Below are positions 7,865-39,510 of a stretch of DNA of 64,000 nt, one piece after another. Position 1 is the stretch's first letter, and each line of letters starts with the position of its first letter. Location: positions 96,938 through 160,937 of the forward strand of contig JBAZZQ010000001.1 of NCBI GenBank assembly GCA_041658725.1, in the 5' to 3' direction. Origin of the DNA: Phycisphaerae bacterium. Lineage in GTDB: Bacteria > Planctomycetota > Phycisphaerae > JAAYCJ01. Under the pieces are notes generated by a model that worked only from the letters and a program-made list of their open reading frames with translations, searched no databases and was not told the origin of the DNA. Position numbers and translations under genes: made by a program.

Positions 7865-8060
7865 CTTAACTGAATAAAAACGTTCTTCTGATCCCTTCGG
7901 TGCGATCATAGGCAGCGCCTACGAAATATCTTACCTACCCAACACAGTGCCGGATAACTTACTAACCTCTCTCCAGATCAGCATGAGACAAGAGAACTTC
8001 ACCCATAGATCGCTTTGGACTTAACGTGCAAGAATATGCACAAACGTTTTTGTCTGTCCA

Positions 8061-8471
8061 TTGAATATGAAACCGAATAAAATATCTTTTATAGATTACC
8101 GTGGAAAGGACGCCGATATGAAACTAACCGAAATCGCCCGGGAACTTGATCTTGAACCGCTAACGCCTGAAATTCTTTCCGATGCTTCACCGGATATTAC
8201 GGCTGGGTATGTGTCCGATCTATTAAGCGACGTTTTGGCTCATGCCCCCGCGCAGGGGGTTCTGGTCACGGTCCAGGTCCACATGAACGTGATCGCCGTG
8301 GCGGTGCATGCGAATTTGACGGCCGTGATCTTCGCCGCAGATCGCCGACCCGAACCACCGGTCATCGAAAAGGCGATGGCGGAAAAAATTACCCTCTTTG
8401 TTTCGAAAGATTCCTCGTTTGCAATCGTCGGTAAGTTGTATTCTATGGGATTGCGAGGACCTTGTGCGTGA
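8061..8471 (+). CDS. DRTGG domain-containing protein (hydrogenase-cluster accessory protein)
   Basis: 136 aa with the DRTGG-like core. Order is as in known hydABC-associated DRTGG/PHP/ATPase trios. Confidence 0.55.
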   Translation: MNMKPNKISFIDYRGKDADMKLTEIARELDLEPLTPEILSDASPDITAGYVSDLLSDVLAHAPAQGVLVTVQVHMNVIAVAVHANLTAVIFAADRRPEPPVIEKAMAEKITLFVSKDSSFAIVGKLYSMGLRGPCA

Positions 8472-21396: not shown

Positions 21397-23160
21397 TCAT
21401 TGCAGCCGGTTCAAAAGCGCCAGGAAATTCCGTTTGCGTCCGTGAGCGGCCCGGAGAGTTTGTAGATACGAAGCAAATTCCGTTTCTTGATTTGCTGTTT
21501 TCAAGAGCGCCCGGATTTTCTTGATCCAGGTGACGGCGTCCTTGTAATTATCGTTTCCCCCGTGGCTGATCAGTTTCTCAACGTGCTTCCGATAAATGGG
21601 AATGGCATCGACGGGATGTTCCTTTTCCCGCAACCGAGCCAGTTCCATCCACAGGTCGTCGGAGCAACCTCCGGCCAGGGCCTCCGTCCATGCGGTCTCG
21701 GCATCCTTTTCCCACAGATAAATCCGGACAAGAAGCGAATGGTCTCTTGGGGTTGACCAATCATATCGACGAGCCTCTTTTTTTTCCTGGACGATCTTTT
21801 TTTGAATAAAGGCCAAAGCCTGCTCGCGCCATCGCGGCCAATCTTTAACACGTTCCGCATGCGTCTTGAGTTCCTGATACGAGTGCAAGTCGGGTCGGTC
21901 TTCCAGGTTGGCCCAGATCAATTTCATGGCCTCGTCGTGCCGTTTCTGCCTATGATACTCTTCGGCCAAGAAGGTGCGAAGTTGGGAGTCCGGTCGTTCG
22001 AGAAACGCCTTCAGACCGTCTTGGGCCCATTGGATTGCCCGGTCGTATTTCTTGTTCTCCCGGTAAAGCTGCGCGATCGCCAGGTAGTGATGGGCGGCGG
22101 ACAAGTCACGGCTCTTGACGGCCACCAGAGCCTCAATGTCCCCTTGTCTCTCGGCCAGGTTTTCCATAATCGATTTTAAACCGTAGCGTCGATGATCGTA
22201 AGAATCCTCCCGCTGTCCGGGTTTTAATGCAGGTAGCTTGTTCCACTCGGTCTCCACCAGTTTGCGGAACGCGGCCAGGCCTTTTTCCCCCAGGACATCC
22301 GAATAGGTTTCCACCGTATGGTTAAAAACATTACCGTAATCGTCCATCTCCCATTCAAACAATTGCCGGGCCAATCGTTCCGGATCGGGTTTGGCCGCCA
22401 CGCAGGCGTCGTGGTGCAGTTCCTGCAACTCCTCAAAAGTATCCCCGATCCAGCCGTCGGAATCATCCGCTACCCGCGAGATTTGTTCAAAGCGATCCAT
22501 CGCATATTCGACCAGTTCCAACACCTCTTTGATATGCCCCTCCTTCAGCAAGTCTCTGAAATTCTTGATGATCTCGTCTAAATTACGAGTGGCTTCATAC
22601 GGCGATTCGTAATCCGAATAGTCTCCCCCTCCGACCGCGTGATCGATGGCCTTGCGGATGGCGGCTGAATTTATCCCTTGTTGGCCGGTCCGCGACATTT
22701 TCATCATCAACCGGCCCAGAAGTTTTTCATCGTCCATAGCCTGACTCATGATGACTTCCACCAGGGCGGAAACTTCTTGAGTTTGAAGGAATTTGCGCAG
22801 GTCCTCCATCGACGGGGCTTTTTCCTTTTTTGAAGATTCGGTTCGACCGTGATCCGCCTTGCCCGGTTCCGCGCCTTTTTCCAGATATGCCAGCCCGGCC
22901 GCCACACAATGCTTGCAGAACTCCCCCTCCTGACCGAAAGGACAGTTACACTCGCCGTCCAGTTTGTCCTTGTGCATCCATAGCTTGACCTTGTACGTAT
23001 GGGTCCCCCGCACCTTGGCAACGATGACCCCATTATCCTCAACCAGAGAAATCACCGCCCCTTCATGAAAGTAATCCACCCCCCGCTGCCAGGACCCGGA
23101 GCCCGCTAATTGCTTCAATTTTGCCTTCGTGAATTCCATATTACCTAATTCATTACCCAT
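21397..23160 (-). CDS. SWIM zinc-finger domain protein with long helical/TPR-like C-terminal region
   Basis: GECNCPFGQEGEFCKHCVAAGLAY is a CxCxnCxH SWIM finger near the N-terminus. A start at 23160 (MGNELGNMEF) overlaps the upstream gene's stop in an ATGGGTAA arrangement; the ORF-track start at 23367 is probably too early. Confidence 0.55.
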   Translation of the reverse strand: MGNELGNMEFTKAKLKQLAGSGSWQRGVDYFHEGAVISLVEDNGVIVAKVRGTHTYKVKLWMHKDKLDGECNCPFGQEGEFCKHCVAAGLAYLEKGAEPGKADHGRTESSKKEKAPSMEDLRKFLQTQEVSALVEVIMSQAMDDEKLLGRLMMKMSRTGQQGINSAAIRKAIDHAVGGGDYSDYESPYEATRNLDEIIKNFRDLLKEGHIKEVLELVEYAMDRFEQISRVADDSDGWIGDTFEELQELHHDACVAAKPDPERLARQLFEWEMDDYGNVFNHTVETYSDVLGEKGLAAFRKLVETEWNKLPALKPGQREDSYDHRRYGLKSIMENLAERQGDIEALVAVKSRDLSAAHHYLAIAQLYRENKKYDRAIQWAQDGLKAFLERPDSQLRTFLAEEYHRQKRHDEAMKLIWANLEDRPDLHSYQELKTHAERVKDWPRWREQALAFIQKKIVQEKKEARRYDWSTPRDHSLLVRIYLWEKDAETAWTEALAGGCSDDLWMELARLREKEHPVDAIPIYRKHVEKLISHGGNDNYKDAVTWIKKIRALLKTANQETEFASYLQTLRAAHGRKRNFLALLNRLQ

Positions 23161-24100
23161 CGGATTGGTTCTTATCCTCTTTCCCCTCGTATAACACACG
23201 GTAGTGTTCAATCGTATCCCAATCCAAAGCAAAATTCGCATACTGCTTGAGCAGACGAAACTTTCCACAACCGGGAATCTGGCATTCGCTTTTATCTCGG
23301 GGGCAAGAATTAAAGGCGCACAATCGGCCAAGGTACCGATTCGTACCCGGTTCCAGAAGGAACACATCTATCTGATGGTGGGCGGGAGTGAGGCCCGTTT
23401 TCTCCCGGAGGGTGTTCAAAGCGGCATTCCGGGCTTTGAATAGTGCTTTTAAAGAATTCAAATCACTGACCCAGACGGCCAGATCCACGTCTTTGCACTC
23501 ATGCGGTAGTGCCACATTATACCGGCGGAATTCGGCAAATCGCGGGACTTCCCTTGTAAGAGGCTGAGCGACCGACCCGAACAGAACCACTTTTTCCACG
23601 AACGGCAATTTTGAAAAGGCCGCCGCCACAAATTCCACGGTAATCTGAAAGTCCCTCCACCGTTTCTGTAAGCATTGCTCTTGCTCGGCGATCGCCCGTT
23701 CCGACGGTCGATCGCAGGAATCCTCCCATTCATCGCCCTCCTCCCCATCAGGGAGATGGTTGCTCCCGGCGAGCGAATCCGCCTCATCAACGTGATCGGT
23801 CGAAGGGAAATTTCCAACATCAACGTCTCCTTGCCGTCCAATGGGAACAAGGTCCCGCTCAGACGGTTTTGCTTTTCGTGCCTTCTTTCGGGCCGCTTTT
23901 TCCTGTCGCTTCCCATACATCTCTCGAACCCAGTCCTCGACCAGCAATTTCCACCGCTGGGATGGCGAAGGGATGTTTTTTATCAGGCTTTTCGGATTCA
24001 GACCCATTTCCTGGGCCATCCGCAGAGCCTCGGCGCTCAGCCGGCATCTCTGTTTGGCTCTTTGCCATTCGTCCTGGATGTGACCGTGTTTTCCAGACAT
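23153..24100 (-). CDS. Minimal nucleotidyltransferase-fold protein (Pol-beta superfamily) with Cys-rich C-terminal tail
   Basis: VVLFGSVAQPL...ECKDVDLAVWV matches the hG[GS] / DxD NTase motif. C-terminal CAFNSCPRDKSECQIPGCGKF. The N-terminal ~120 aa are charged and uncharacterised. Confidence 0.45.
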   Translation of the reverse strand: MSGKHGHIQDEWQRAKQRCRLSAEALRMAQEMGLNPKSLIKNIPSPSQRWKLLVEDWVREMYGKRQEKAARKKARKAKPSERDLVPIGRQGDVDVGNFPSTDHVDEADSLAGSNHLPDGEEGDEWEDSCDRPSERAIAEQEQCLQKRWRDFQITVEFVAAAFSKLPFVEKVVLFGSVAQPLTREVPRFAEFRRYNVALPHECKDVDLAVWVSDLNSLKALFKARNAALNTLREKTGLTPAHHQIDVFLLEPGTNRYLGRLCAFNSCPRDKSECQIPGCGKFRLLKQYANFALDWDTIEHYRVLYEGKEDKNQSDG

Positions 24101-24145: not shown

Positions 24146-25048
24146 TCATTGGTAACCATTGATGACATACGGCAAGGGGGTGGTAGGGATTTGTGGCGCC
24201 TTCGCATTCTTTTCGCCGATGGCGTCAAGGTCTTCAATCACATCCCGTGCCGTTCGACTGATCCGCTCAAAACTTTCCGCGACCTTTTTCCCGTCGCCGC
24301 CCCATTTCGTGATGTAGCGGCTGGCCCGCAGTTCGACGTCCAAACCAAAGTGACGACAGACCACGTACGCCACCGCTTCGGCTTCCAATTCGGCGGTTTG
24401 ACGACCGATGCTCTCATCGTTGATATGAAGCGATTCGTGACAAATCTCATGGGCTAAACTTTTCGCTTTTTGGCCGCTGGAGACGCTCTCGGCAAGCAGG
24501 ATTTGCCCACCGCGACTCTGGCCATACAGCCCTGGCCGCAGATCCCGATATTCCAGTCGAATGCCCCGCTGATTCGCCACTCGCTCCAGGCGTTCTAGCA
24601 GTTCGTCAGCCGTGATTTCGATTTCCGGTACGACAAACGTCGGAATATCCTTGCCCTCAGTCTGCGAGACATCAAACACGCATGCCGTTTTGAAAAAGAC
24701 CCGCTCAATCTCTTCCCCTGCCTCGTCCATAACTGGACACGGGGCGAAAATACGAATCGCCTTCTCGCCCGATCGAACGCACCGGTCGAACTTCTTCCAG
24801 GTCGTAAACCCAGCCACCTGGGTTGCCTCGGGGTTTTGGGCAAGAATCAGCAGGCAATTCTTCCAGGAATACCGGTGAAACCGAGCCAGTGTGTCCAGGT
24901 ATTGTCGGAATGTGTCCGACGCCCGCTGATCGTCTACCGCATGGGCCAACCGTTCCAGGCTTTCGTCGATCGATTTTCGAAGTTGAGTTGTATTGTTTTG
25001 GTTATCATATTTCATTTTGCCACCGCCGGGTGTGCTCTTTTTGGGCAC
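24146..25048 (-). CDS. ArdC-like protein: N-terminal ssDNA-binding ArdC-N (DUF1738) domain plus C-terminal HExxH zincin-like metallopeptidase domain
   Basis: FHRYSWKNCLLILAQ is the ArdC-N signature. SLAHEICHESLH is an HExxH motif, as in ArdC / MPTase-PolyVal proteins of conjugative elements and phages. Confidence 0.6.
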   Translation of the reverse strand: MPKKSTPGGGKMKYDNQNNTTQLRKSIDESLERLAHAVDDQRASDTFRQYLDTLARFHRYSWKNCLLILAQNPEATQVAGFTTWKKFDRCVRSGEKAIRIFAPCPVMDEAGEEIERVFFKTACVFDVSQTEGKDIPTFVVPEIEITADELLERLERVANQRGIRLEYRDLRPGLYGQSRGGQILLAESVSSGQKAKSLAHEICHESLHINDESIGRQTAELEAEAVAYVVCRHFGLDVELRASRYITKWGGDGKKVAESFERISRTARDVIEDLDAIGEKNAKAPQIPTTPLPYVINGYQ

Positions 25049-26738: not shown

Positions 26739-28376
26739 TCATTGTAAATTCTCCAATTCAACTCCATGCCACCGCGATCCTCGACCATACCCACGCATCT
26801 GCACCTTGCCTTCGGCTTTCAGCCCCTGAAGCAAGTACTTCACCTGGGTCTCAGACAGGAAACTGAGCACTTGGTGCAGGTCATGCAGTGGCGCGCCTTC
26901 CGATCCGCTGTCATGGATGTGTTTGAGGAGTAACTGACGGTTTGTCTCGCGATCCAACCCCTTCTTGCGGGTGTAAACCCCCGCCTTGCCCACTGCCTGA
27001 TGATATCGACGCGACAGCAGGTAGCGAACACCTCGTCCACGGCCGAGACTTTCAATAATCCCCTCATCGACCAGCGATTGAAGTACCGGTCGTAACTCAC
27101 CCTGGACCGCCTGCTCCCGTCGCAACGTATCCAGGACCAGCAGTTCGTGGGTGGTGAATACCGCCGCACGTTCAGGCCCGATCTTTTCCAGAAATCGCAA
27201 AAACCCGGGATCCTGCAACTGTCCGTGGAGCGTCAGCGAAACCTGATAGGCATCTGTTTGCGCGAAGTCCGGCAGTGGCTTGCTCTGGCGAATCGTCTCT
27301 TCAAATATGCGGTTCAGCCCCTGCCCCGCCCGCTCAACCAAACCGCAACGGGCAAAGCTGTCTACCAGCCGGCGATTCCGTGGCGACTGCCTATCAATAA
27401 TGTTCTCCACCGAGATGCCCGGCGGAAAGCCACCGGGACTGACAATCTCCAACCGGCGCGGATACTGGCGGATGAACACTGACCCCTGGTTGCGGTAGTC
27501 GCGATGGCCGACGGCATTGAGAATAGCTTCACGGGTGGCCGCCTCGCTAAATGTCGGCACATCCAGCATGAACAGGCCATCCTGAAAATGCTGCAGGTCA
27601 TTGCGGAGATTGATCGTTTCCCAGAGCTTGTCGTACCACGCAAGAAAGCCCCAGCGAAACTCCACACGTTGGCTGGCCGGGCCCGAGGCCTGCGTCGAAC
27701 GGTACTCAAAGATCACCTCCGCATTGGCAAGGTATCGGCCTATTGCCGGGTGCGTTCCCAGCAGAATCAACGCCGCATACGTGATTCTATCTTTGTCCGT
27801 CAGTTCAGCATCGGCCAGAAGCTGTCGGATCGGCAGGTTGACCAGGACCTGATTGCCGGATTTCCGCAGCCACCGCTGGCGAAACTCTTCAATGGCGACC
27901 GGGTCCAGATCATCCAGAACCGCCCCCGGGCATAGCTCCGCCGAAAAATCCGGACCGGATTCATCGAAAATCCGTTTGATCTGATCGGGCGTCATCGCCA
28001 CCAGATCTTGCCCACCACGCATCCAGTAGGCGCCCTCAATAGCAATCGGCATCCCGATCGGGCGCGACGGCACCCGAAAGACCAATACCCGTCCGTGGGG
28101 ATGCCGCACTTCATCCACCTCCACCCGCAGCCGCAACCGCTCAATCAGCCCCGCCCGCGTACGTTCGAGCGGGTCAAAGGCCATGCTCCCGACAACGCGG
28201 CGCGGTGGCCGGTCGCTTACCCCCAGGATCATCAGGCCACCGCCCTCATTCGCAAGGGCGGCGCAGTACGTGACCAGCTTCTCAAAATGGAAGTTGTGCT
28301 TTGCCTCCTTGAATTCCAGATGCTCCCCCTCCGGAGCATTCATCCAGTTCTGAAGTTGTGCCAGTGATGTCGGCAT
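26739..28376 (-). CDS. AlbA_2 (Schlafen-like divergent AAA) / HATPase_c_4 / C-terminal wHTH protein ('RecG C-terminal-like' putative transcriptional regulator)
   Basis: 545 aa. N-terminal EGEHLEFKEAKHNF...GGGLMILGVSD (AlbA_2), central AILNAVGHRDY (HATPase_c_4), C-terminal winged helix. It is an intact paralogue of the frameshifted gene at 19766-21114. Confidence 0.7.
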   Translation of the reverse strand: MPTSLAQLQNWMNAPEGEHLEFKEAKHNFHFEKLVTYCAALANEGGGLMILGVSDRPPRRVVGSMAFDPLERTRAGLIERLRLRVEVDEVRHPHGRVLVFRVPSRPIGMPIAIEGAYWMRGGQDLVAMTPDQIKRIFDESGPDFSAELCPGAVLDDLDPVAIEEFRQRWLRKSGNQVLVNLPIRQLLADAELTDKDRITYAALILLGTHPAIGRYLANAEVIFEYRSTQASGPASQRVEFRWGFLAWYDKLWETINLRNDLQHFQDGLFMLDVPTFSEAATREAILNAVGHRDYRNQGSVFIRQYPRRLEIVSPGGFPPGISVENIIDRQSPRNRRLVDSFARCGLVERAGQGLNRIFEETIRQSKPLPDFAQTDAYQVSLTLHGQLQDPGFLRFLEKIGPERAAVFTTHELLVLDTLRREQAVQGELRPVLQSLVDEGIIESLGRGRGVRYLLSRRYHQAVGKAGVYTRKKGLDRETNRQLLLKHIHDSGSEGAPLHDLHQVLSFLSETQVKYLLQGLKAEGKVQMRGYGRGSRWHGVELENLQ

Positions 28377-28835
28377 GGATTACTTTATCTCCACTTTCTT
28401 CTTCCGATCCGCCTTCTCCGGCTGCGGCCAGGCCATGACTTCAGCCACGTTTTTGCCAAGAGCTTTGGCCTCTTCGGTCAGATAACTCTCAAAATAATTA
28501 CCTATACACGTACCGTACGTCGGATCATCGCTTGATACAGCATACTTTCAGATTATATTCGTATCTGCTGCAAATCAAGGAAATTTAGCCATTTCTGGTC
28601 AATTCGCACGAACTTACGAAAGTTTCCACAAAGGATATTTGCGAATTCGTAAATGCCAGTCTGACATCACATCAAAGGTTATCCGCAAACCCCATCATAA
28701 TATTGGATATTAATGATGGAGTGAATCAAGTTGCAGAATAGAGATCATGCTAACTCATGAAGAAAAGCTCTCAGACAGAAGGTCGGCAGTGGATGAAAAG
28801 AAAAAAGAATCAAAGTAATGATCTGAGGGTTAATT

Positions 28836-28883
28836 CACTGGTTAGTAAATTGAATTGGATGTCCGGATCAATCGGCAGAGGGT
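28836..28883. repeat. 48-bp direct repeat, copy 1 (intergenic), ~92% identical to the 3' end of the E1-like gene at 30259-30306
   Basis: aattcactggttagtaaattgaattggatgtccggatcaatcggcaga vs aattcactggtcagcaaattgaattgaatgtccgaatcaatcggcaga. 44 of 48 positions match. Confidence 0.7.
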
Positions 28884-29173: not shown

Positions 29174-29379
29174 TTTTTCCTCCAGCCATACTCACTTTTG
29201 GAGCCTGGCTCATGTTTTTGGCCAGGCTCAAGAATAAATCGGATACTGAAGCCGGTCTTCCCGATGTTCGATTCAAATTTGATACGTTCTTTACTGTGAC
29301 GTTCCAGCGTCCCCTCGAACCTCGGACGCCGAAAAAAGGCTTCAGCGTAAACTTCAGAGAAAACTTCAGTACAAACTTC

Positions 29380-29607
29380 ATGGTAAAAGGTCGGCAACTT
29401 GAGCGAATGCTGGCGGCGATTGAAATCGTGGCGGGCGGAAAGATCCTCAACGTTGCGGATTTGGCCCGCGTCTTTCAGGTCTCGCCGCGGACGGTATTCG
29501 AAGACTTGCGGCGGCTTCAGAAATGGGAAATTCTTGCGTTTGAAGGTCCCCCCAAAACCGGACGGTATGCACTGACTGAAACCGGCAGAAAAATGATTAC
29601 CCGGTGA
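29380..29607 (+). CDS. Small HTH (DeoR/HTH_11-like) DNA-binding protein
   Basis: ILNVADLARVFQVSPRTVFEDLRRLQ is a helix-turn-helix of the DeoR-N/HTH_11 type. The ORF track begins at 29212, but the conserved part begins at the Met at 29380. Confidence 0.45.
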   Translation: MVKGRQLERMLAAIEIVAGGKILNVADLARVFQVSPRTVFEDLRRLQKWEILAFEGPPKTGRYALTETGRKMITR

Positions 29608-29759: not shown

Positions 29760-30149
29760 TCACGATATTGGTTCAAGCAATGGTTTCACAGGCAGCACAA
29801 ACAGCTCGTTTGGCATCTCTCGCAGGTGCCGAATCGCCTGTCGATGCCAGAGGATTTCGTGTTTCAATTCCCCAATGGCTTCGGTGTGGCGATGTCGGTG
29901 ATACGGGGCGGCGGCTCGGGAAGCGGCGGGCGGCTTGGTGTAGGCTGGCGGGTGGGCAGGTCGGGTCTGGATGAATCCGTCGTACACCAGCCAGAACATC
30001 TGGAGGCATGCCGGGCAGAGCAGCGCATAAGCGTTTTGAGTGCCTTGTATGTCCGTCAGCACCAATTGCCGATAGCCGATGCCGGGATCGGTCTGTCCGC
30101 ACTTGGCACATTGGATACGGTAACGGGTGGATTTGGTTTTCTTGGTCAT
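29760..30149 (-). CDS. Zinc-ribbon protein (CAKCG...CPAC), last gene of the Ubl-system operon
   Basis: Two CxxC pairs spaced ~27 aa apart, then a Pro/Ala-rich segment and a C-terminal helix. Function unknown. Confidence 0.35.
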   Translation of the reverse strand: MTKKTKSTRYRIQCAKCGQTDPGIGYRQLVLTDIQGTQNAYALLCPACLQMFWLVYDGFIQTRPAHPPAYTKPPAASRAAAPYHRHRHTEAIGELKHEILWHRQAIRHLREMPNELFVLPVKPLLEPIS

Positions 30150-30239: not shown

Positions 30240-30911
30240 TTAATGGGATTCGGCAACCGTCAATTCACTGGTCAGCAAATTGAATTGAATGTCCGAATCA
30301 ATCGGCAGATTTCTCAACCACTTGGCAAACTGGGCGATCATCAGGCCGGCAGCGATATTCGCACAGTAGATGGTCGTCTTGGCCGTGCAGGCGCCTTGAT
30401 GGGCTTCCTCAGCGGCAAAAAGCGTGGTTGGGTAGTGCTTTCGGGAAACCGGGTCGCAGGCAGTCAGAACTCGAAGGACTTCGGCGGACATTCTTCCGTC
30501 GCACCAGAATTCTACCTGGTCCTTCACCGAGTCCCAAAGGAGTTTTCGGGTCTCGATTTTGTCAACACAGATAAAAATAACATTGCCGACCTTGGTGCTT
30601 CGTTTGAATCGCTCGGGAACCCGGACGATATCAACTTGGCCGTTGATTCGCCAGCAGTCCTGGGCGGTGGCATTGACTTTCAGGGCCGAAAGCGATTCCT
30701 CCAGGTAGCCTTGGCTGGCCAAGTTATGGATTTCGACCGTATCAAAATCCAAGAGTTGCAAACACGAGACTCCCATCGCCGCCAGTTGCAGGGCGACTTG
30801 CCTGCCAATGGCTCCGACGCCGATCACCGTCACTTTGCATCGGGCCAGTTTTTCCGGCGGGATTATGTCCTTTTGCCGGATAAAGCGTTCATTATCAGTT
30901 TGTGCATCCAT
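30240..30911 (-). CDS. E1-like ubiquitin-activating enzyme homologue (ThiF/MoeB/HesA family, short form)
   Basis: KVTVIGVGAIGRQVALQLAAMGV is a Rossmann nucleotide loop; FDTVEIHNL; CTAKTTIYCANIAAGLMIAQ. 223 aa, the size typical of phage-defence-associated or Ubl-operon E1s rather than MoeB. Confidence 0.7.
   Translation of the reverse strand: MDAQTDNERFIRQKDIIPPEKLARCKVTVIGVGAIGRQVALQLAAMGVSCLQLLDFDTVEIHNLASQGYLEESLSALKVNATAQDCWRINGQVDIVRVPERFKRSTKVGNVIFICVDKIETRKLLWDSVKDQVEFWCDGRMSAEVLRVLTACDPVSRKHYPTTLFAAEEAHQGACTAKTTIYCANIAAGLMIAQFAKWLRNLPIDSDIQFNLLTSELTVAESH
30259..30306. repeat. 48-bp direct repeat, copy 2 (inside the 3' end of the E1-like CDS)
   Basis: See copy 1 at 28836-28883. Confidence 0.7.
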
Positions 30912-30963: not shown

Positions 30964-31284
30964 TCATTCCAGGCCGCCGAACTCTTCGGCTTTTTCCCAG
31001 AGGTATTCGGTGCATAACCAGCGGGTCCGAACCTGGCAAGCAGGATTAATCTTGCGGAAGGCTTCGGTGAACCGCTCATGGGCTTCCGCTTCGGTTTCAC
31101 CACCACACAGCGATCCCGACCCACCCCAATGGACATACGGCTCATTGTGCTTGTCGGTTTGAATCTCACAAAAGCCCTGGTCCCAGCCGGACTCGCTCAT
31201 CACCCGGCAGACCTGTTCCATACTCAAGTCCTTGACTTCCACTCTCACTTCATAGCAGCGACTCATAAAAAAAACTCCTTTCAA
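30964..31284 (-). CDS. Hypothetical small protein within the Ubl operon
   Basis: 106-aa ORF (probable start MSRCYEV) ending ...EEFGGLE. No recognised domain. Confidence 0.3.
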   Translation of the reverse strand: MKGVFFMSRCYEVRVEVKDLSMEQVCRVMSESGWDQGFCEIQTDKHNEPYVHWGGSGSLCGGETEAEAHERFTEAFRKINPACQVRTRWLCTEYLWEKAEEFGGLE

Positions 31285-31293
31285 AAGTTGCGG

Positions 31294-31998
31294 TTAGTAG
31301 TTCCACCACCAGGGGTTGTCGGGGTCTTCGAAGCCCCATGCTCTTTCGTCGAATTCCTCAATCTCTTCTTCCGGCCAGCCGGTTGCGAGTTCGGCCCGTT
31401 CTTCCGGGGTCATTGACTGCTCTTGAATTCCTCGCCATTCCTCGGGATGGATATTGGCTTTGTATTCCTCGATCCAGGCCGGTTGATCCGCGGCGAGGAA
31501 GGGTTTGTCATAATCCACTTCGACTGGGATCAGAACCTGTCCACCGGGACCGACGTTAAAACTGATCCGGGCGTAGGTTTTTCCTTCCTGAGCCACGATA
31601 AACATAATGCTCCATTGACACTTCCCGAAAACTCGCCGGAATGTCTCTTCATCGGTTCCGCTTGGATTTGGACAGTTGCCGGGGTGAGTATGGACCCAGA
31701 TTCTTGCGAATTGTTCGGGTTTTCGGCCCTGGTCCACCCGTGTTTCAAAGAAATCGGCAACGGCGTTATCATCGAACGATACGCTGACGCAGGTGACCTG
31801 CTGTTTCACCGTTTGAAAATCGTGGATGTAGAGCAAGTCATCCGGTGGGGTGATGCCGAAGCCGCCGATCTCGGTTTCACCGGCATCGCGAAAGAAGAGC
31901 AGTTTAGCCCAGGCGGTTGGGCTGAAGCGAAGGGACAGCGTTTTTCCGGTAAACGTTTCTTCTTCATCAAACCGCGGTCGCAGTATCCGCACTTTCAC
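31294..31998 (-). CDS. JAB/JAMM-family metallopeptidase (deubiquitinase-like)
   Basis: E(TEIGGFG)...[17 protein letters not shown] gives the E-x(n)-H-x-H-x7-S-x2-D JAMM zinc motif. The ORF track extends to 32133 and overlaps the upstream gene by 167 nt. A GTG start at 31998 or 31992 is more plausible, so the start is uncertain. Confidence 0.65.
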
Positions 31999-33088
31999 AT
32001 TCGTCTTGGCATTCGGTTCCGGTGTCTTCTCCGGTTTCGGATCTGGAGACACTTCCGACTTTGGTTCCTTCGGTTCGGGTTTCGGACTCACGTTCGTTGT
32101 TTCCACTGGATTCAACATTTTCATTTTCCTCACTTTCGGTTTTACAATTGGGACAAATTAATTCATTATCATCCATACACGAAGTACAACATTTCTGACC
32201 ACACTCTTTGCAGGTCTTGAGACAATCCTTACAGACTCTTTCTTCGCATTCGGGGCAACGATCCAGACAACTCAGACATACGGTGGTGTCGCACGAATGG
32301 CAGTAGCTGGAACATTCCTCGCAGAATTCCCGCGAACAAAACTGGCAAAAATAGACATAGTCTTCTGACATCTCACTTCCACACTCATAACACGACCGGC
32401 CATTCCAATCCTCGATCGTTACATACGCAGAGGCAGCGTTATACGTGTTCAGAATGTTTGAGACCAGAGTGAAAAAGTCATAGATGCGGCCTTCGTGTAA
32501 TGCCATGTTGATGGCCGCTGATCCATCGCCTTCGCACAATCGATCACTGCTGACGTGCGGGTGAGTGACCTCATCGTTCGAACTCGCTGTGTGCGGGTCG
32601 CAGGCAAAAACGTAGTAGCTTGCCTGGTCATAGTGCCGCCAGAGATTTTTCACTTCCAGTTGAATCTGAAAGGATCCCAGGTACAGGTCATCGAGTTCGA
32701 TCGGCTGGGTATCCACAGACAGATGGTTTTCCTCAAAGTCGTAGGAAAATTCCTCGAATTCATCCTGGACCTGTAAAAGTTCTTCGTAGATGGTTCGCAC
32801 GGCAGGTAAAGTGAATTTAGGGGCCTGGGAAAGCTGCTGAAGATCGCCGACGGCATGAGACACGAAGTACAAATCGCGGTTCATCCGATCGCGGCAACGT
32901 TCCGCCGCGGCTGACCATGTGCGATTAATCGATTGTGCCAATTGCTTACTCGTTTGAGTAATGTCGGACAGTTGGCTGGAGACGTTGCTCATCCGCTGCA
33001 ATAGTTCTTTGTAGCGATGCTGATGGAGTTTTACCAATTCATCGAGTATGCGATCTGCGATTCGAAACAGTTCTTTAGGGGTGTACAT
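31967..33088 (-). CDS. E2-like (UBC-fold) protein fused to a C-terminal Cys-rich multi-CxxC zinc-finger array
   Basis: [15 protein letters not shown] resembles the UBC HPN-x(6-8)-C active-site region. The C-terminal 100 aa carry about ten CxxC pairs (CYECG, CQFCS, CEEC, CHSCD, CLSC, CPEC, CKDC, CKEC, CTSC, CPNC), then an acidic tail. Confidence 0.5.
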
Positions 33089-33176: not shown

Positions 33177-33407
33177 TTACGAAGAGATTCGCGCGCCCTC
33201 AATTTTCGTTGGAGTGCAGGTAACGCGGTCGCCATCCTGCAACACGTAGTTTTGGGGCACGGGTTGACGGTTCACGCGAATAAGATACTCCGTGGGTTCA
33301 CGATCCTGCATCTGAGTTTTGAAAAACTGATGCATCGTGGTTCCTTCGTTGATGGTGACATAATTCGCGTAGCCGCCTCCGTCATTATTGATCCATAATA
33401 TTCTCAT
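33177..33407 (-). CDS. Ubiquitin-like beta-grasp protein (ThiS/MoaD-like Ubl) with a short C-terminal extension after the conserved Gly
   Basis: 76 aa. ...YVLQDGDRVTCTPTKIEGARISS matches the ThiS/MoaD pattern L-DGD-V-h-P-h-GG, but continues 5 residues past the Gly. Confidence 0.55.
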   Translation of the reverse strand: MRILWINNDGGGYANYVTINEGTTMHQFFKTQMQDREPTEYLIRVNRQPVPQNYVLQDGDRVTCTPTKIEGARISS

Positions 33408-34825: not shown

Positions 34826-36844
34826 TTAGCGATAAGAGGAAATAGTTTCTTCCGCGGTCGGGAAATCTCCATGGCCGGGATGATAGTGATCAATTATCCG
34901 TTCAATCAAGTCGTCCGGCAGTAAAACCCGTCCTTCCCAAATCGCGAGATACTTTTTAAAAATGGATTTGGGCAGGTGGATTTCATTCTGCCAATTTGAT
35001 CCGAAAAGGTCGGTGGCTAGTGTTTCGGCCATGAATTCCTCGGGTTCGATATCGGGTTCCGCTCGGGTGAGCCAGGCTCGGATCTTTGGCTCCAGGTCGG
35101 GGTAAACGATGCGACCGATGTCGCGGAGCAGGTGAGCGACTTCTTCCTGGAGCGACCGGCCGTCCAGACAATTGGCGGTGTCATAGACATGAAGCATGAT
35201 CCGACCGGTCTTGTAGTCCACCTCGTATTTTCCAAAGATGCCGTAGGGGACGTTGTTCTGATATGCACCGCAAAACCGCTGCTGAAGTTGAAGCGTGGTC
35301 GGCTCCGGCACGGCGTCGTGATACAGGACCTGAACACCCCGGGCCAAGGACGGCTGGGATTGCAGCCAGTCCAGGATGGGCCGATGGGACTGGGGCGGTT
35401 GTCGGTCGGCAGGAAATCCGCCGGGCTTAAATTCCAAGTCGGTAAAGATGACCGGTAGGGTCGGCGTGAGGGGATTCTTGACCATTTGCTGGACCTTTTC
35501 GTCCCAGGTTGGCCAGGATTGGAGTCGAGGAATGCCTCGTGGCCGGTTCTCAAGGCCCTCGGCCACCAACTCGTTTTCTTTTTCCACCCGGCGGCGCTCC
35601 AGCTCTTTTCGCGAGAGGAGGCCCTTGGTTCCCACAAACTGTCTCCGGAAACCGTCCCCGGTGTTCCAGGCCAGGTAGTAGTGCTTTCCGCTGTACATGC
35701 AAACCCCCACCTTCGGTCGAAGCATCGTGTGCCATTGATCCGGGGGGATCTCCAGAGAGCGTCGGATCCGCTGGAGCATTTTTTGCCGCTTGGAGTAGCC
35801 GACCTTTCCCAACCGTTGGCGGTGGATGATTCGCGCATCGCTGCGAGCGTGCCAAATGGCATACCAGTCTTGGCCAATTCGTTCTTCCCAGACCGGAGGA
35901 CGGCGGTAGACTTCGTCAGCTCGCTGGTGAGCAATCTGCCGGGCATTTTCCCAGGCGGCCTTCATCGCTTGCCGATGCTCGGCCTCGCCATGTTTCCAGA
36001 GGTACGACCAAGTATTGACGTTCAAGGTGTTGGCGGTCTCGATAAATTCGTCCAACGTGCGGGTCGCCTCATCACGGAGGTTAGAGACATTCGGATTGTG
36101 CAGTTGCCAGGTTGCAAGGTCCTCCAGGACCCGTTCCATTCGCGAGGTTCGGATGTTGCCGGTAATCATCACGTTTGGTTTGCCTTCATAGGCCAGTTCT
36201 CGGTCCCAGGACTCGCCGCGAAGGCGCCGCATGGTCGGTTCATAGGTCGAGTCTCCATCATGGTGACTGAATTCCGTCAGATCGTGGGAAACGATGTTTC
36301 CCGTCCGTTTGAGGTATTCGCGAATCTTCTCGATGGTGTGGTCACCGGGGAGTTTGGCCCCGCGTCCGCGTTCAGAGAGGGAAAACGAAAAGATCGCTTC
36401 GTGGATCCCCGAGCGGATGCCGCTTTTGCCGTCTTTGGGTATCCGGCCTGCCAGCATGACGTGACCGAGGGATTTATCCACGGCCTTCGCTTTTTTTTTA
36501 AAGCAGGCGATGTAGTCGCCAGCCCCCGGCCGCGTCAGATTGTGGCGGACGATCAGGTAGCCCTGGTGGACCAGTTCATTGGCGTACTGGAGGACCCACT
36601 GATTAATAACCGAATCGGGGAACTTAAAAAAATATTTTTGAAACAAGAGGCGAATCACCCAGAGCACGTTCTCCCAGGGCGAGTCTTGGGGGTACTCGTA
36701 TGGCCAGTTTTCCGGTTTGGTCTGGAGAAAGTCATCCAATGCCTGCTGGGCCTGGATTACATCCAGCGAAATGGTTGTCGGTTGTGACGGACGGTCTGTT
36801 TGCAGAGGTTGGATGAAATAATATTCAGATCGTAAATGGTGCAT
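34826..36844 (-). CDS. Large uncharacterised protein (~672 aa), first gene of the Ubl operon
   Basis: Long ORF with a good AAAGGG RBS before the Met at 36844 (ORF track begins at 36958). No motif I can assign. The antisense 433-aa ORF is rejected. Confidence 0.4.
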   Translation of the reverse strand: MHHLRSEYYFIQPLQTDRPSQPTTISLDVIQAQQALDDFLQTKPENWPYEYPQDSPWENVLWVIRLLFQKYFFKFPDSVINQWVLQYANELVHQGYLIVRHNLTRPGAGDYIACFKKKAKAVDKSLGHVMLAGRIPKDGKSGIRSGIHEAIFSFSLSERGRGAKLPGDHTIEKIREYLKRTGNIVSHDLTEFSHHDGDSTYEPTMRRLRGESWDRELAYEGKPNVMITGNIRTSRMERVLEDLATWQLHNPNVSNLRDEATRTLDEFIETANTLNVNTWSYLWKHGEAEHRQAMKAAWENARQIAHQRADEVYRRPPVWEERIGQDWYAIWHARSDARIIHRQRLGKVGYSKRQKMLQRIRRSLEIPPDQWHTMLRPKVGVCMYSGKHYYLAWNTGDGFRRQFVGTKGLLSRKELERRRVEKENELVAEGLENRPRGIPRLQSWPTWDEKVQQMVKNPLTPTLPVIFTDLEFKPGGFPADRQPPQSHRPILDWLQSQPSLARGVQVLYHDAVPEPTTLQLQQRFCGAYQNNVPYGIFGKYEVDYKTGRIMLHVYDTANCLDGRSLQEEVAHLLRDIGRIVYPDLEPKIRAWLTRAEPDIEPEEFMAETLATDLFGSNWQNEIHLPKSIFKKYLAIWEGRVLLPDDLIERIIDHYHPGHGDFPTAEETISSYR

Positions 36845-36988
36845 AGTTTTGCCCTTTCTGTAAAATGTAAAAAAGAAAAAAGCCCCGCACATGGGCTGCG
36901 GGGCTTGGTTGGGGCGCATAAAAAAGACGCCGACGCGGCGTTTTGGCCCCAGATACAAAGTGGAATCTGTCAGATTGCTCGATGCCGT

Positions 36989-37846
36989 TTATTCATCCCG
37001 GAACATCTCCGGCTCGATTTTTTCCAAGGCAGTCGGCTTGAACCATAGATCGCGTTCGATCGGCAATCCCATCGGTCCGGTCGTGGTTTCCAATTCGGAG
37101 AGTGAAAAGTACCCAAGCTCTTTCTCCATGCCGAGGACCAATCCGAAAAACATGTCCTCACCGTCATACTCAGTCGCGAGCCAAGTAAAATTACTTGATG
37201 GAGTGAAGAATTTACAATACGCGATGGCTTTTCCACCCTTGCCGTCCTGGCTGTAGAGGGCGGGGATCTGCTTTCGCAGTTCCTCCGTCATCAGTTTGTG
37301 GCCACGTTTGGTCTCGTTGCCGCGGATTTGAACCGTTACACCATTGGTGGATACAGCGTTTTCCACCGGAATGCCAACGGCACTTGCCATTTCACCCAGG
37401 AATGCGGCCATGTTCTGCCGCTGTTCGGTTCGTGAGATTGGGTCCGATTCAATATAAGGAATCGGCGTGCCAATGATTTCGATCCGATTGGGTTCCGGCT
37501 CGATCACTACCCGGCCGTTTTCTGTACTGAACCATTCTAGATATACATCTTTGCCATAGTCGAATGGTGGGCCGCCGGATGTGATGTCTCCGACCTTTCC
37601 CGTTTGGGTCAGGGAAAAGCCTTCCAGATAGCTTGCCGCTTCTGGATCGTCCGCTTTGCCTTCTCCGGTAAAGCGAATCTTCGCTCCGCGAATATCGCGG
37701 TGGAAGTTGCCTTCCAGATCAAATGTTACGTTCTCGTTCAATCCGGCAAATTTGATATATCCGGTTACTCTATTTGGTACCGAATTATCAAGCTCGCCCT
37801 CGATAACCTGTTCTGTCGGTCGCCATGCCATAATAGTTTTCTCCAT
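36989..37846 (-). CDS. DUF2958-domain protein
   Basis: The C-terminal CKFFTPSSNFTWLATEYDGEDMFFGLVLGMEKELGYFSLSEL...GLPIERDLWFKP matches the conserved DUF2958 block found on plasmids and conjugative elements. Confidence 0.5.
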   Translation of the reverse strand: MEKTIMAWRPTEQVIEGELDNSVPNRVTGYIKFAGLNENVTFDLEGNFHRDIRGAKIRFTGEGKADDPEAASYLEGFSLTQTGKVGDITSGGPPFDYGKDVYLEWFSTENGRVVIEPEPNRIEIIGTPIPYIESDPISRTEQRQNMAAFLGEMASAVGIPVENAVSTNGVTVQIRGNETKRGHKLMTEELRKQIPALYSQDGKGGKAIAYCKFFTPSSNFTWLATEYDGEDMFFGLVLGMEKELGYFSLSELETTTGPMGLPIERDLWFKPTALEKIEPEMFRDE

Positions 37847-38649: not shown

Positions 38650-39510
38650 TCACCGACTTGTGGTTCTGAGCGTCTGTACGCCATGTTTCCGAATATATCG
38701 ATGCCCCTCCCGCTCGATCGCGGCCTTTAGTCGCTCCAAGACGTCATTGGTTTCCCCTTGCCTTCGGGCTGCCAGGGCTCGCCGGACTTCAATCATCCGG
38801 TCGTCCCCACAATCTATCCGGTAGTGCAGGTCGTGACAGCCTGCCGGCCGATATTCAAATCCGACCACCTCGCCGCCGAAGTTTACCAGCACGTTGTCAT
38901 TGTCCATGAAGGAGAGAATGCGCTCATGCCAAGGATCCCAGTGAGCCGGATTCACCGCCGCTAGGCGGCATCCCAACTCGGGATAGACCGTAGCATGGGG
39001 GTCCACGAAAGGAATGCTCGGCAAATCTCGGCCGTCCAGCGACACCCGCATTCCGGAAAAGACGGCATTGATCTCCACCAGGTCGATGGTCCACGGGTCA
39101 TCCGGGAATTCCAACTCCGTCCCCTCCCTTATTCCCGGATCGGCTCGCACCGCCAGAGGCTGCCCGGTCCATTCGTTGGGGCCAATCCGCACCCGCTTGC
39201 CTCGGGAGCGGACGATCAGTTCCCGCGGGGCCAGGCAAAGCAGACCCACCCCAGGCGGGTACTCGTACGCTTCCCGGTTCTCCTCTCCGCCGAAGTTACG
39301 GCGGTCCAGGATCGTGGAGAAGTCGGCGATCCCCCGGCCGTTATCTCGAACGATGATCCGGTCGTTTCGGTTAATGATCGCCACCTTTGTGGCCCCCGCC
39401 CGGCAGGCGGTTTGCAGGATCTCAATCACCCGCCCTTCCCGCGATCCGGTGAAGAACCGATCGTGTTTTTGTACAAGCCGCGACCTTGCCGCGGCGTCCA
39501 TGGTTTCCAT
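38650..39510 (-). CDS. GHKL-superfamily ATPase-like protein (HATPase_c fold N-terminus) with uncharacterised C-terminal region
   Basis: VIEILQTACRAGATKVAI...IIVRDNGRGI matches the N-box/G1-box of Bergerat ATPases. Confidence 0.4.
   Translation of the reverse strand: METMDAAARSRLVQKHDRFFTGSREGRVIEILQTACRAGATKVAIINRNDRIIVRDNGRGIADFSTILDRRNFGGEENREAYEYPPGVGLLCLAPRELIVRSRGKRVRIGPNEWTGQPLAVRADPGIREGTELEFPDDPWTIDLVEINAVFSGMRVSLDGRDLPSIPFVDPHATVYPELGCRLAAVNPAHWDPWHERILSFMDNDNVLVNFGGEVVGFEYRPAGCHDLHYRIDCGDDRMIEVRRALAARRQGETNDVLERLKAAIEREGHRYIRKHGVQTLRTTSR

Follow-up and report, generated by a model that had tools for sequence, protein, structure and literature searches.

A 64,000-nucleotide stretch of DNA from a Phycisphaerae bacterium (GenBank assembly GCA_041658725.1, contig JBAZZQ010000001.1, positions 96,938 to 160,937; hereafter the window, in whose own numbering all coordinates are given) contains a four-gene cassette encoding a ubiquitin-like protein (Ubl), a protein that resembles a ubiquitin-conjugating enzyme (E2) and is fused to a cysteine-rich array, a JAB-type peptidase and a ThiF-type activating enzyme (E1). 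The fused protein, here called E2Zn, is the subject of this analysis. The genes of the cassette and the parts of E2Zn, in the order of transcription, are the following:

33177-33407, minus strand: Ubl gene, 76 amino acids, beta-grasp/ThiS-like (weak Pfam ThiS match, E 0.0027)
31967-33088, minus strand: E2Zn gene, UBC-like with a zinc array, an open reading frame (ORF) of 373 amino acids with an ATG start
32804-33088, minus strand: E2Zn residues 1-95, predicted long antiparallel helical hairpin (AlphaFold2, helices 4-55 and 59-87)
32402-32803, minus strand: E2Zn residues 96-229, predicted UBC-fold core (domain model, Foldseek, invariant columns)
32141-32401, minus strand: E2Zn residues 230-316, array of ten CxxC dyads (conservation, spacing, AlphaFold2/DSSP)
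31970-32140, minus strand: E2Zn residues 317-373, predicted helix 313-327 and then a disordered acidic Glu/Ser/Thr tail (AlphaFold2)
31294-31998, minus strand: JAB/JAMM peptidase gene, about 234 amino acids (Prok-JAB, JAMM motif; start uncertain, frame open to 32133)
30240-30911, minus strand: gene of a minimal E1, a single ThiF-type adenylation domain of 223 amino acids (Pfam ThiF, E 2.2e-21)

Homologous loci, 47 in number, were collected from metagenomes, GTDB species genomes and IMG/VR. The order Ubl-E2-JAB-ThiF is kept throughout them, with the Ubl gene directly upstream of the E2 gene, and the four genes were found in 42 (Ubl), 47 (E2), 45 (JAB) and 43 (ThiF) of the loci, which bears out the conserved operon proposed in an earlier reading of this DNA from its letters alone (the sequence-only reading). 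The Ubl ends in an invariant ...TPxKIEGA, followed by 2-4 variable residues that are presumably trimmed by the JAB peptidase. The latter carries the conserved JAMM motif HxHPGx5PSxTD and matches Pfam Prok-JAB (E 9e-4) and JAB models of PADLOC. The E1 matches the ThiF/MoeB models of NCBIfam, and its Cys175, located in a GxCTAK motif and present in 42 of 42 loci, is a candidate thioester cysteine.

The ORF at 31967-33088 is present as the sequence-only reading had described it, with all ten of the dyads that it listed and with the Glu/Ser/Thr-rich tail. A search of 5.8 billion proteins returned 106 relatives (E-values down to 1e-253), none of which carries a precomputed Pfam domain in that set; E2Zn has no name in the Pfam, NCBIfam or PADLOC models, and an identical protein in a Phycisphaerae metagenome-assembled genome (MAG) is annotated 'hypothetical protein'. 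An exhaustive hidden Markov model (HMM) search with the E2 core extended the family to 2098 representative clusters at E<=1e-3 (694 at E<=1e-30), and the architecture is common to almost all of the 150 representatives inspected. The AlphaFold2 model built from the family alignment has a mean predicted local distance difference test score (pLDDT) of 85.9, falls below 50 only at residues 327-373, and consists of the helical hairpin, a helix with a beta-meander and two further helices (97-214), a series of short hairpins (231-301), helix 313-327 and the tail. The N-terminal hairpin is modelled with a pLDDT >90, varies in sequence (mean top-residue frequency 0.35) and finds only coiled-coil hairpins in Foldseek. 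The tail contains 17.6% Glu across the family and has a median length of 38 amino acids. Two relatives are built differently: in one (P0238), the E2 core and a shortened zinc module lead into ankyrin repeats, five or more in number, that replace the distal array; in another (P0172), a GYF_2 domain and a trypsin-like protease are fused in front of the E2 core, and the array has eight dyads.

For structural comparison of the core, a model of residues 92-229 alone was used (pLDDT 89.4, predicted template modelling score 0.85), given that the full-length model yielded weak and mixed Foldseek matches against the PDB. The roughly 44 top PDB matches of this domain model are all E2s (TM 0.46-0.54 over about 130-137 columns, E 0.02-0.9), including UBE2A (probability 0.97, TMq 0.53) and Ubc13 (TMq 0.54). 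The motif H176-P-H178-x6-C185 is found in 253 of 253 family sequences, and in 296 of 302 in a larger set; the H176-P-H178 codons lie at 32555-32563 and that of the putative catalytic Cys185 at 32534-32536. In this HPH motif, a His takes the place of the oxyanion Asn of the canonical HPN. An hhalign comparison with UBE2D2 is not significant (E 0.21); it pairs HPH with HPN, C185 with the catalytic C85 and NTYNPDSPYV with DPNPDDPLV, a register in which the core motif NTYNxxSxYV aligns with the canonical PNPxDP. The UBC-like domain of the sequence-only reading thus holds up on the uniformly E2-type structural matches and the conserved HPH-x6-Cys, and the core is probably a divergent, catalytic E2, judging from the predicted fold and these motifs.

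The array comprises the dyads C233/236, C248/251, C256/259, C263/266, C271/274, C278/281, C286/289, C293/296, C301/304 and C312/315. It therefore spans residues 233-315, with the Glu/Ser/Thr-rich tail at 316-373, and not residues 270-373, the interval given for it before. In a conservation alignment of 38 sequences (31-74% identical to the window protein), the array has 20 cysteines, of which 16 do not vary at all and four are conserved to 90% or more. The spacing is fixed as well: C-x2-C-x11-C-x2-C-x4-C-x2-C-x3, then 15-residue repeats (C-x2-C-x4-C-x2-C-x3) and a final x5-7-C-x2-C. Exactly ten dyads occur in 178 of 224 complete relatives, the variants having 8, 12, 14 or 16, and counts of 9 or 11 correspond to a single cysteine lost or extra. 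On such sequence grounds, the ten-dyad array is real and conserved far beyond chance, and its cysteine conservation, fixed spacing and dyad count identify it as a covalently fused module that orthologues keep; its absence from them was the outcome against which the sequence-only reading had been set. Its non-Cys positions vary roughly as much as those of the N-terminal hairpin, their mean top-residue frequency being 0.38 versus 0.61 for the E2 core. A profile of the array searched against the 5.8-billion-protein set gave zero matches, family members included, and is uninformative, its Cys-rich composition being the suspected cause. In a structure search of BFVD, part of the AlphaFold2 model is matched by uncharacterised proteins of uncultured caudoviruses and giant viruses (E 6.5e-5 to 1e-3), some examples being A0A516KZW4, A0A3G4ZUD0, the 'amidoligase enzyme' A0A6J7X5D3 and the 'prokaryotic metallothionein' A0A8S5MS56. 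These matches probably fall on the Cys-rich rod of the model, which would mean that similar CxxC arrays exist in other viral proteins.

Across the 224 complete relatives, dyads are gained and lost in twos, as would be expected if every 15-residue repeat contributed one Zn(Cys)4 site. Dyads 6 and 9 are lost together in four representatives with loop lengths kept, dyads 8 and 10 are lost together in two, and one whole repeat is deleted in one. AlphaFold2 is confident over the array (pLDDT 86-95), and DSSP analysis of the model places dyads 1, 2, 4, 6 and 8 at the tips of beta-hairpins and dyads 3, 5 and 10 in helical turns just after a hairpin; dyads 7 and 9 occupy equivalent turn positions, where no helix is assigned. 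Taken together, the cysteine conservation, the changes in twos and the predicted fold make it most likely that the array binds five structural zinc ions through Zn(Cys)4 sites. Combining the DSSP positions, the paired dyad losses and the alignment with TFIIH p44 described below suggests the pairing (1,3), (2,5), (4,7), (6,9) and (8,10); under either of the two simple sequential schemes, one of the two loss patterns leaves dyads without a partner. By the favoured rule, the hairpin-tip knuckle of repeat k would join the turn dyad of repeat k+1 and create a rigid, periodic, interleaved rod, which would explain how whole repeats can be inserted or deleted.

Comparison with known zinc fingers did not give the fit to RING (C3HC4) or B-box templates raised by the sequence-only reading. 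The canonical C3HC4 and C3H2C3 patterns are not matched: all ligands are Cys, there is no conserved His, loops are short and the spacing between ligands 4 and 5 is x4. None of the Pfam RING models matches the array, and no Pfam zinc-finger model reaches its threshold there, zf-B_box scoring 16.0 bits against a cut-off of 24.1; a match to Pfam C1_4 was not reported. The best similarities are to the C4C4 RING of TFIIH p44 (residues 223-272; phmmer E=1.4e-5 with the single sequence, 0.034-0.044 with the family profile), MID1 B-box1 (E=2.8e-4, the best PDB profile match) and the RNF4 RING (7e-4). All of these are cross-brace treble-clef fingers and all of the similarities, as sequence matches, are marginal. 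The p44 domain holds its two zinc ions in a cross-brace, can be superimposed on E3 RINGs and serves in contacts between proteins (PMC5737387). The C4C4 domain of p44/Ssl1 (PDB 1Z60; PMC5737387) and the array share the pattern C-x2-C-x11-C-x2-C-x4-C-x2-C with the next dyad 10-11 residues on, all-Cys ligands and, if the array is folded as predicted, the cross-brace topology. They differ in that p44 binds two zinc ions, whereas the array has an extra knuckle dyad in the loop and three further predicted sites: in the alignment, dyad 4 of p44 falls on dyad 5 of the array, and dyad 4 of the array lies within the intervening loop.

The boundary between the E2Zn and JAB genes had been reported as uncertain, with low-complexity tails overlapping in alternate frames. 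This overlap is real: the longest JAB ORF opens at GTG 32133 and shares 167 nt with the E2Zn ORF. The array's final Cys codon ends at 32144 and thus lies upstream of even this start, so the array is not the JAB N-terminus read in another frame and the E2Zn C-terminus does not lie at an earlier stop. In JAB homologues from three other loci, the conserved region begins at LRPRF/LRF, the window counterpart being ILRPRF, and for this reason GTG 31998 or 31992 is the likely JAB start, leaving an overlap of 26-32 nt. Nearly all related loci show such an overlap of the two genes, the JAB frame remaining open over as much as 572 nt. What reads as a P/E/K-rich 'N-terminus' in the long JAB ORF is the acidic tail of E2Zn in another frame; by reasoning rather than computation, Glu-rich codons would keep alternate frames free of stops, which would explain the long JAB-frame ORFs. 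A GAGG resembling a Shine-Dalgarno sequence 9 nt before ATG 32118 was considered as a sign of a long JAB N-terminus and set aside, as it consists of Glu codons of the E2 tail; the P/E/K-rich extension is also not conserved among JAB homologues. The conserved JAB motif LRFxPxAWAKL in many loci begins within the E2 gene itself, 11-56 nt ahead of the stop; the window region concerned is 31967-32000. The last residue of the E2 tail is A, G or S in 74% of cases, and these ends, together with a C-terminal QxDxxGE[TA] motif, were examined as a possible mimic of a Ubl tail; on manual frame reading and in view of the E2/JAB overlaps, the motif is probably an alternate-frame shadow of LRFxPxAWAKL.

Ten relatives of about 240 amino acids that end in '...W-VRFVCLKLA' or a similar string were examined as possible array-less orthologues and rejected as such, since a group II intron interrupts the gene in locus L049, the only one of them reaching beyond the intron, and the complete array is encoded there by exon 2. 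In L049 (5739-8095), the intron starts with GTGCGA, contains a reverse transcriptase/maturase ORF (RVT_N, RVT_1, GIIM) and has an Rfam Intron_gpII domain V-VI at 8018-8094. In at least ten representative relatives (P0098, P0108, P0110, P0256, P0258, P0260, P0261, P0263, P0264 and P0265), the E2Zn gene is apparently split by a group II intron directly after the Trp equivalent to W228, at the boundary between core and array. Another relative that is possibly also split (P0188) ends in ...CQLC-VRPVFPKLAA and hints at a further site of insertion, within the array.

The 42 loci from reference genomes belong to Planctomycetota, except for one MAG contig that bears the label 'uncultured archaeon' and another with no label beyond 'bacterium'. 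Host classes include Phycisphaerae, Sedimentisphaerales, Pirellulales, Planctomycetaceae, Gemmataceae and Kuenenia, and a single MAG holds five copies of the cassette. Upstream of the cassette and in the same orientation, a DUF2958 gene, a marker of mobile-element context, occurs in 23 of the 47 loci. One locus (L002) carries an integrase and AbiEii, and on the one viral contig the cassette adjoins a PD-(D/E)XK nuclease, a DnaB helicase, a Toprim domain and NinG. The cassettes thus ride on phage-like or integrative and conjugative element (ICE)-like elements of Planctomycetota. A tblastn search with the E2 against PLSDB plasmids and INPHARED phages gave no match, and the ThiF protein found only generic ThiF/MoeB matches on plasmids, the one inspected (Legionella) locus being irrelevant.

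The reading preferred here, which is given a little better than an even chance, is that E2Zn is the E2 of a four-gene Ubl conjugation cassette on mobile elements and that its array acts as a built-in adaptor for partners or targets. From the domain architecture, catalytic-type residues, operon, modular cysteine scaffold and mobile context, a pathway can be put forward in which zinc binding, ligand pairing, thioester relay, adaptor role and target are all inferred. The JAB peptidase would process the 76-aa Ubl by removing the 2-4 residues that follow its conserved ...KIEG(A), the 223-aa ThiF-type E1 would adenylate the exposed C-terminus and probably form a thioester on its invariant Cys175, and the Ubl would pass from there to Cys185 of the UBC-fold core and then be ligated to a target, the zinc rod giving the E2 its partner or target specificity. 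The array would probably be E3-like in this targeting sense, not necessarily through RING-type allosteric activation. The adaptor role is proposed because the non-Cys positions are variable, the number of repeats changes and ankyrin repeats can replace the distal array, and also, by analogy, because characterised Bil operons have no E3. The Bil E2s have been proposed to recognise their targets directly (PMC11601596).

Several points weigh against this reading. No E2 sequence model of Pfam, NCBIfam or PADLOC matches the core (UQ_con, Prok-E2_A-E, BilB and Cap2 among them), and the family profile gives no E2 match for the core among PDB sequences; the E2 assignment draws on consistency of the predicted fold and on motifs, with Foldseek E-values of only 0.02-0.9. 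The ligand pairing derives from a few variant lineages and a marginal p44 alignment that weakens with the profile (E 0.03). The array could equally dock the E1 or JAB, and an E3-like or target-recognition role is the best guess at present. Finally, the short linker after the last core helix makes the classical RING-E2 geometry unlikely in cis.

Docking is one alternative: the array would be a docking or scaffold element for the minimal E1, for JAB or for oligomerisation, with no part in target recognition. The 223-aa E1 has neither a UFD nor a Cys domain to recruit an E2, and nearly every member of the family has the array, as an indispensable internal interface would require. On the other hand, the non-Cys surface of the array is poorly conserved, while E1 and JAB are well conserved, and a range of 8 to 16 dyads with a distal part exchangeable for ankyrin repeats is hard to fit to one fixed interface. 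This explanation is considered unlikely.

The array could also be a true in-built RING-type E3 that allosterically activates the discharge of Ubl from the E2, on its own core or on that of a dimer partner. This is regarded as distinctly improbable. It would agree with the weak similarities to the p44 C4C4 RING, the RNF4 RING and MID1 B-box1 and with the superposition of the p44 RING on E3 RINGs (PMC5737387), and the long N-terminal hairpin could mediate dimerisation. However, RING loop lengths and a central helix are missing along with the conserved His, no Pfam RING or B-box model reaches threshold, and only about five residues separate the last core helix from the array. The array is attached on a side of the core that, in canonical E2s, faces away from the surface to which RINGs bind, which also weighs against RING-type activation.

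A redox or metal sensor of metallothionein type that switches the E2, or a nucleic-acid-binding zinc-finger array, is very improbable: the array is 25% Cys and one BFVD match is annotated 'prokaryotic metallothionein', but the strict CxxC spacing and the confidently predicted hairpin fold point to structural zinc. Nucleic-acid binding, which the sequence-only reading had entertained, is unlikely because the array is strongly acidic (mean net charge -10.4, range -16 to -1) and variable outside its cysteines. Of that reading, then, the UBC core, the operon and the fused, conserved array stand, and the RING/B-box and nucleic-acid-binding proposals are not supported in the form given. That the core is a non-catalytic UEV/RWD-type Ubl-binding module, and the protein no Ubl carrier, would suit the lack of an E2 model match and the replacement of the HPN Asn by His, but is scarcely credible when the catalytic-position Cys and its preceding HP, invariant across 296 sequences, include a Cys that UEV/RWD domains do not have, and when the operon supplies E1, Ubl and deubiquitinase.

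Beyond the preferred adaptor reading, a stronger version of it is possible but doubtful, in which E2Zn would be a self-contained E2-E3 hybrid: a RING/p44-type cross-brace would have been extended to a poly-zinc rod of variable length, with one site per 15-residue repeat, that sets target specificity. UBE2O and BIRC6 are eukaryotic E2/E3 hybrids in which a UBC core is joined to its own substrate-recognition regions, so that no separate E3 is needed; they are very large and are unrelated to E2Zn in sequence and architecture.

Among characterised systems, some similarities have been observed between the cassette and the Bil operons (BilABCD, Type I and II). Both have the same complement of Ubl, E2 with a catalytic Cys (putative in the cassette), JAB and E1, a Ubl with a conserved Gly and a short extension that is removed (in the cassette, presumably), no separate E3 gene, and a mobile or defence context (PMC11601596, PMC10557695). 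Nevertheless, the PADLOC models of BilA, BilB and BilC are unmatched, and that of BilD is matched weakly (3.8e-5) and in the adenylation fold only. The E1 is a single ThiF domain of 223 amino acids in place of the IAD-AAD-CYS of Bil, and the E2, found only in Planctomycetota, has the HPH motif, the long N-terminal hairpin and the zinc array. The eukaryote-like operons of Caldiarchaeum and some bacteria that encode E1, E2, a small RING E3, JAB and ubiquitin (Burroughs et al. 2011; Hennell James et al. 2017, PMC5654768) are also prokaryotic Ubl cascades with a treble-clef zinc module, thought to be the E3. In those operons, the RING is a separate, small, canonical protein, and E1 and E2 are recognised by standard models, whereas here the zinc module is fused to the E2, is predicted to hold about five zinc ions and is not a canonical RING.

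Type II CBASS (Cap2/Cap3) and Bub likewise place bacterial E1/E2/JAB-type machinery on mobile defence islands, and weak HMM matches connect the E1 to Cap2-type E1-E2 models and the JAB protein to Cap3. Cap2 is an E1-E2 fusion that conjugates a CD-NTase with no Ubl involved, and Bub uses oxyester chemistry, Cys-less E2s and a DUF6527 protease; none of these features is present here. Membership in Bub (6E/DUF6527) was rejected, since E2 Cys185 and E1 Cys175 are invariant and no DUF6527 gene was found in the neighbourhood. The PRTRC cassette was rejected as well: PRTRC_ThiF of NCBIfam scores 21.8 bits against a cut-off of 144.75, and the E2, JAB and Ubl are unmatched. No description of a bacterial fusion of an E2 to a zinc array was found in the searchable literature; Burroughs et al. 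2011, on prokaryotic RINGs, may hold one.

Judged by its likely function, the cassette appears to be a variant of bacterial Ubl-conjugation operons, in which the E2 architecture and possibly the zinc topology are new. The characterised bacterial systems (CBASS Cap2, Bil, Bub) indicate that ubiquitin-like conjugation is an old weapon in the conflict between phages and their hosts, and the E2Zn family bears on the question of how systems with no E3 choose their targets, as it pairs a very small E1 with an E2 bearing a conserved, modular zinc rod of variable surface. If the rod is the specificity element, the family would offer a compact, experimentally tractable model for E2-intrinsic targeting, and if the interleaved pairing is right, a new way of building extended zinc scaffolds. 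It would also add Planctomycetota mobile elements to the hosts of ubiquitin-like systems. Were E2Zn in fact an E2-E3 hybrid, its rod would set target specificity in the conflict of Planctomycetota with phages or ICEs, and the protein would set a precedent among prokaryotes for combining conjugation with targeting in a single polypeptide; its zinc module would possibly be a relative of eukaryotic cross-brace fingers.

In the window, the cassette lies within an island of about 20 kb (roughly 19-41 kb) between housekeeping genes: hydrogenase, PurQ-like and TrmB-like genes on the left, and 2-oxoacid dehydrogenase, aldehyde dehydrogenase and LarA on the right. The GC content of the island (0.51-0.555) is slightly higher than that to its right (0.45-0.50). 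No tRNA gene or clear att repeat was found in the 64-kb window, and none of its scanned ORFs matches an integrase. Besides the cassette, the island contains:

21397-23367: SWIM and DUF6880 gene
24146-25048: ArdC-N and M78 peptidase gene
26739-28376: Schlafen AlbA_2 and HATPase_c_4 gene
34826-36958: gene of a 710-aa orphan protein
36989-37846, minus strand: DUF2958 gene (Pfam DUF2958, 1.3e-15)

A homologue of a further window ORF, at 38650-39510, lies upstream of the cassette in 13 of the 47 loci.

Within the cassette itself, the 382-nt gap between JAB and ThiF contains an ORF of 106 amino acids (30964-31284, minus strand) that matches no family. It has no homologue in any of the 47 loci, in which the JAB-ThiF spacing is mostly about 50-220 nt and longer in a few, and it may be an insertion specific to the window or not a gene. 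A direct repeat of 51 nt, 90% identical, occurs at 28829-28879 and 30259-30309. The latter copy forms the end of the ThiF/E1 gene, about 17 codons (LPIDSDIQFNLLTSELT), and the other, 1.43 kb downstream, would encode LPIDPDIQFNLLTSEL. Between the two copies lie three small ORFs: one for a helix-turn-helix protein (29212-29607, plus strand), an ORF of 129 amino acids (29760-30149, minus strand), a homologue of which follows ThiF in another locus (L004), and an ORF of 73 amino acids. This segment looks like a small module that joined the E1 gene at its 3' end by insertion or recombination.

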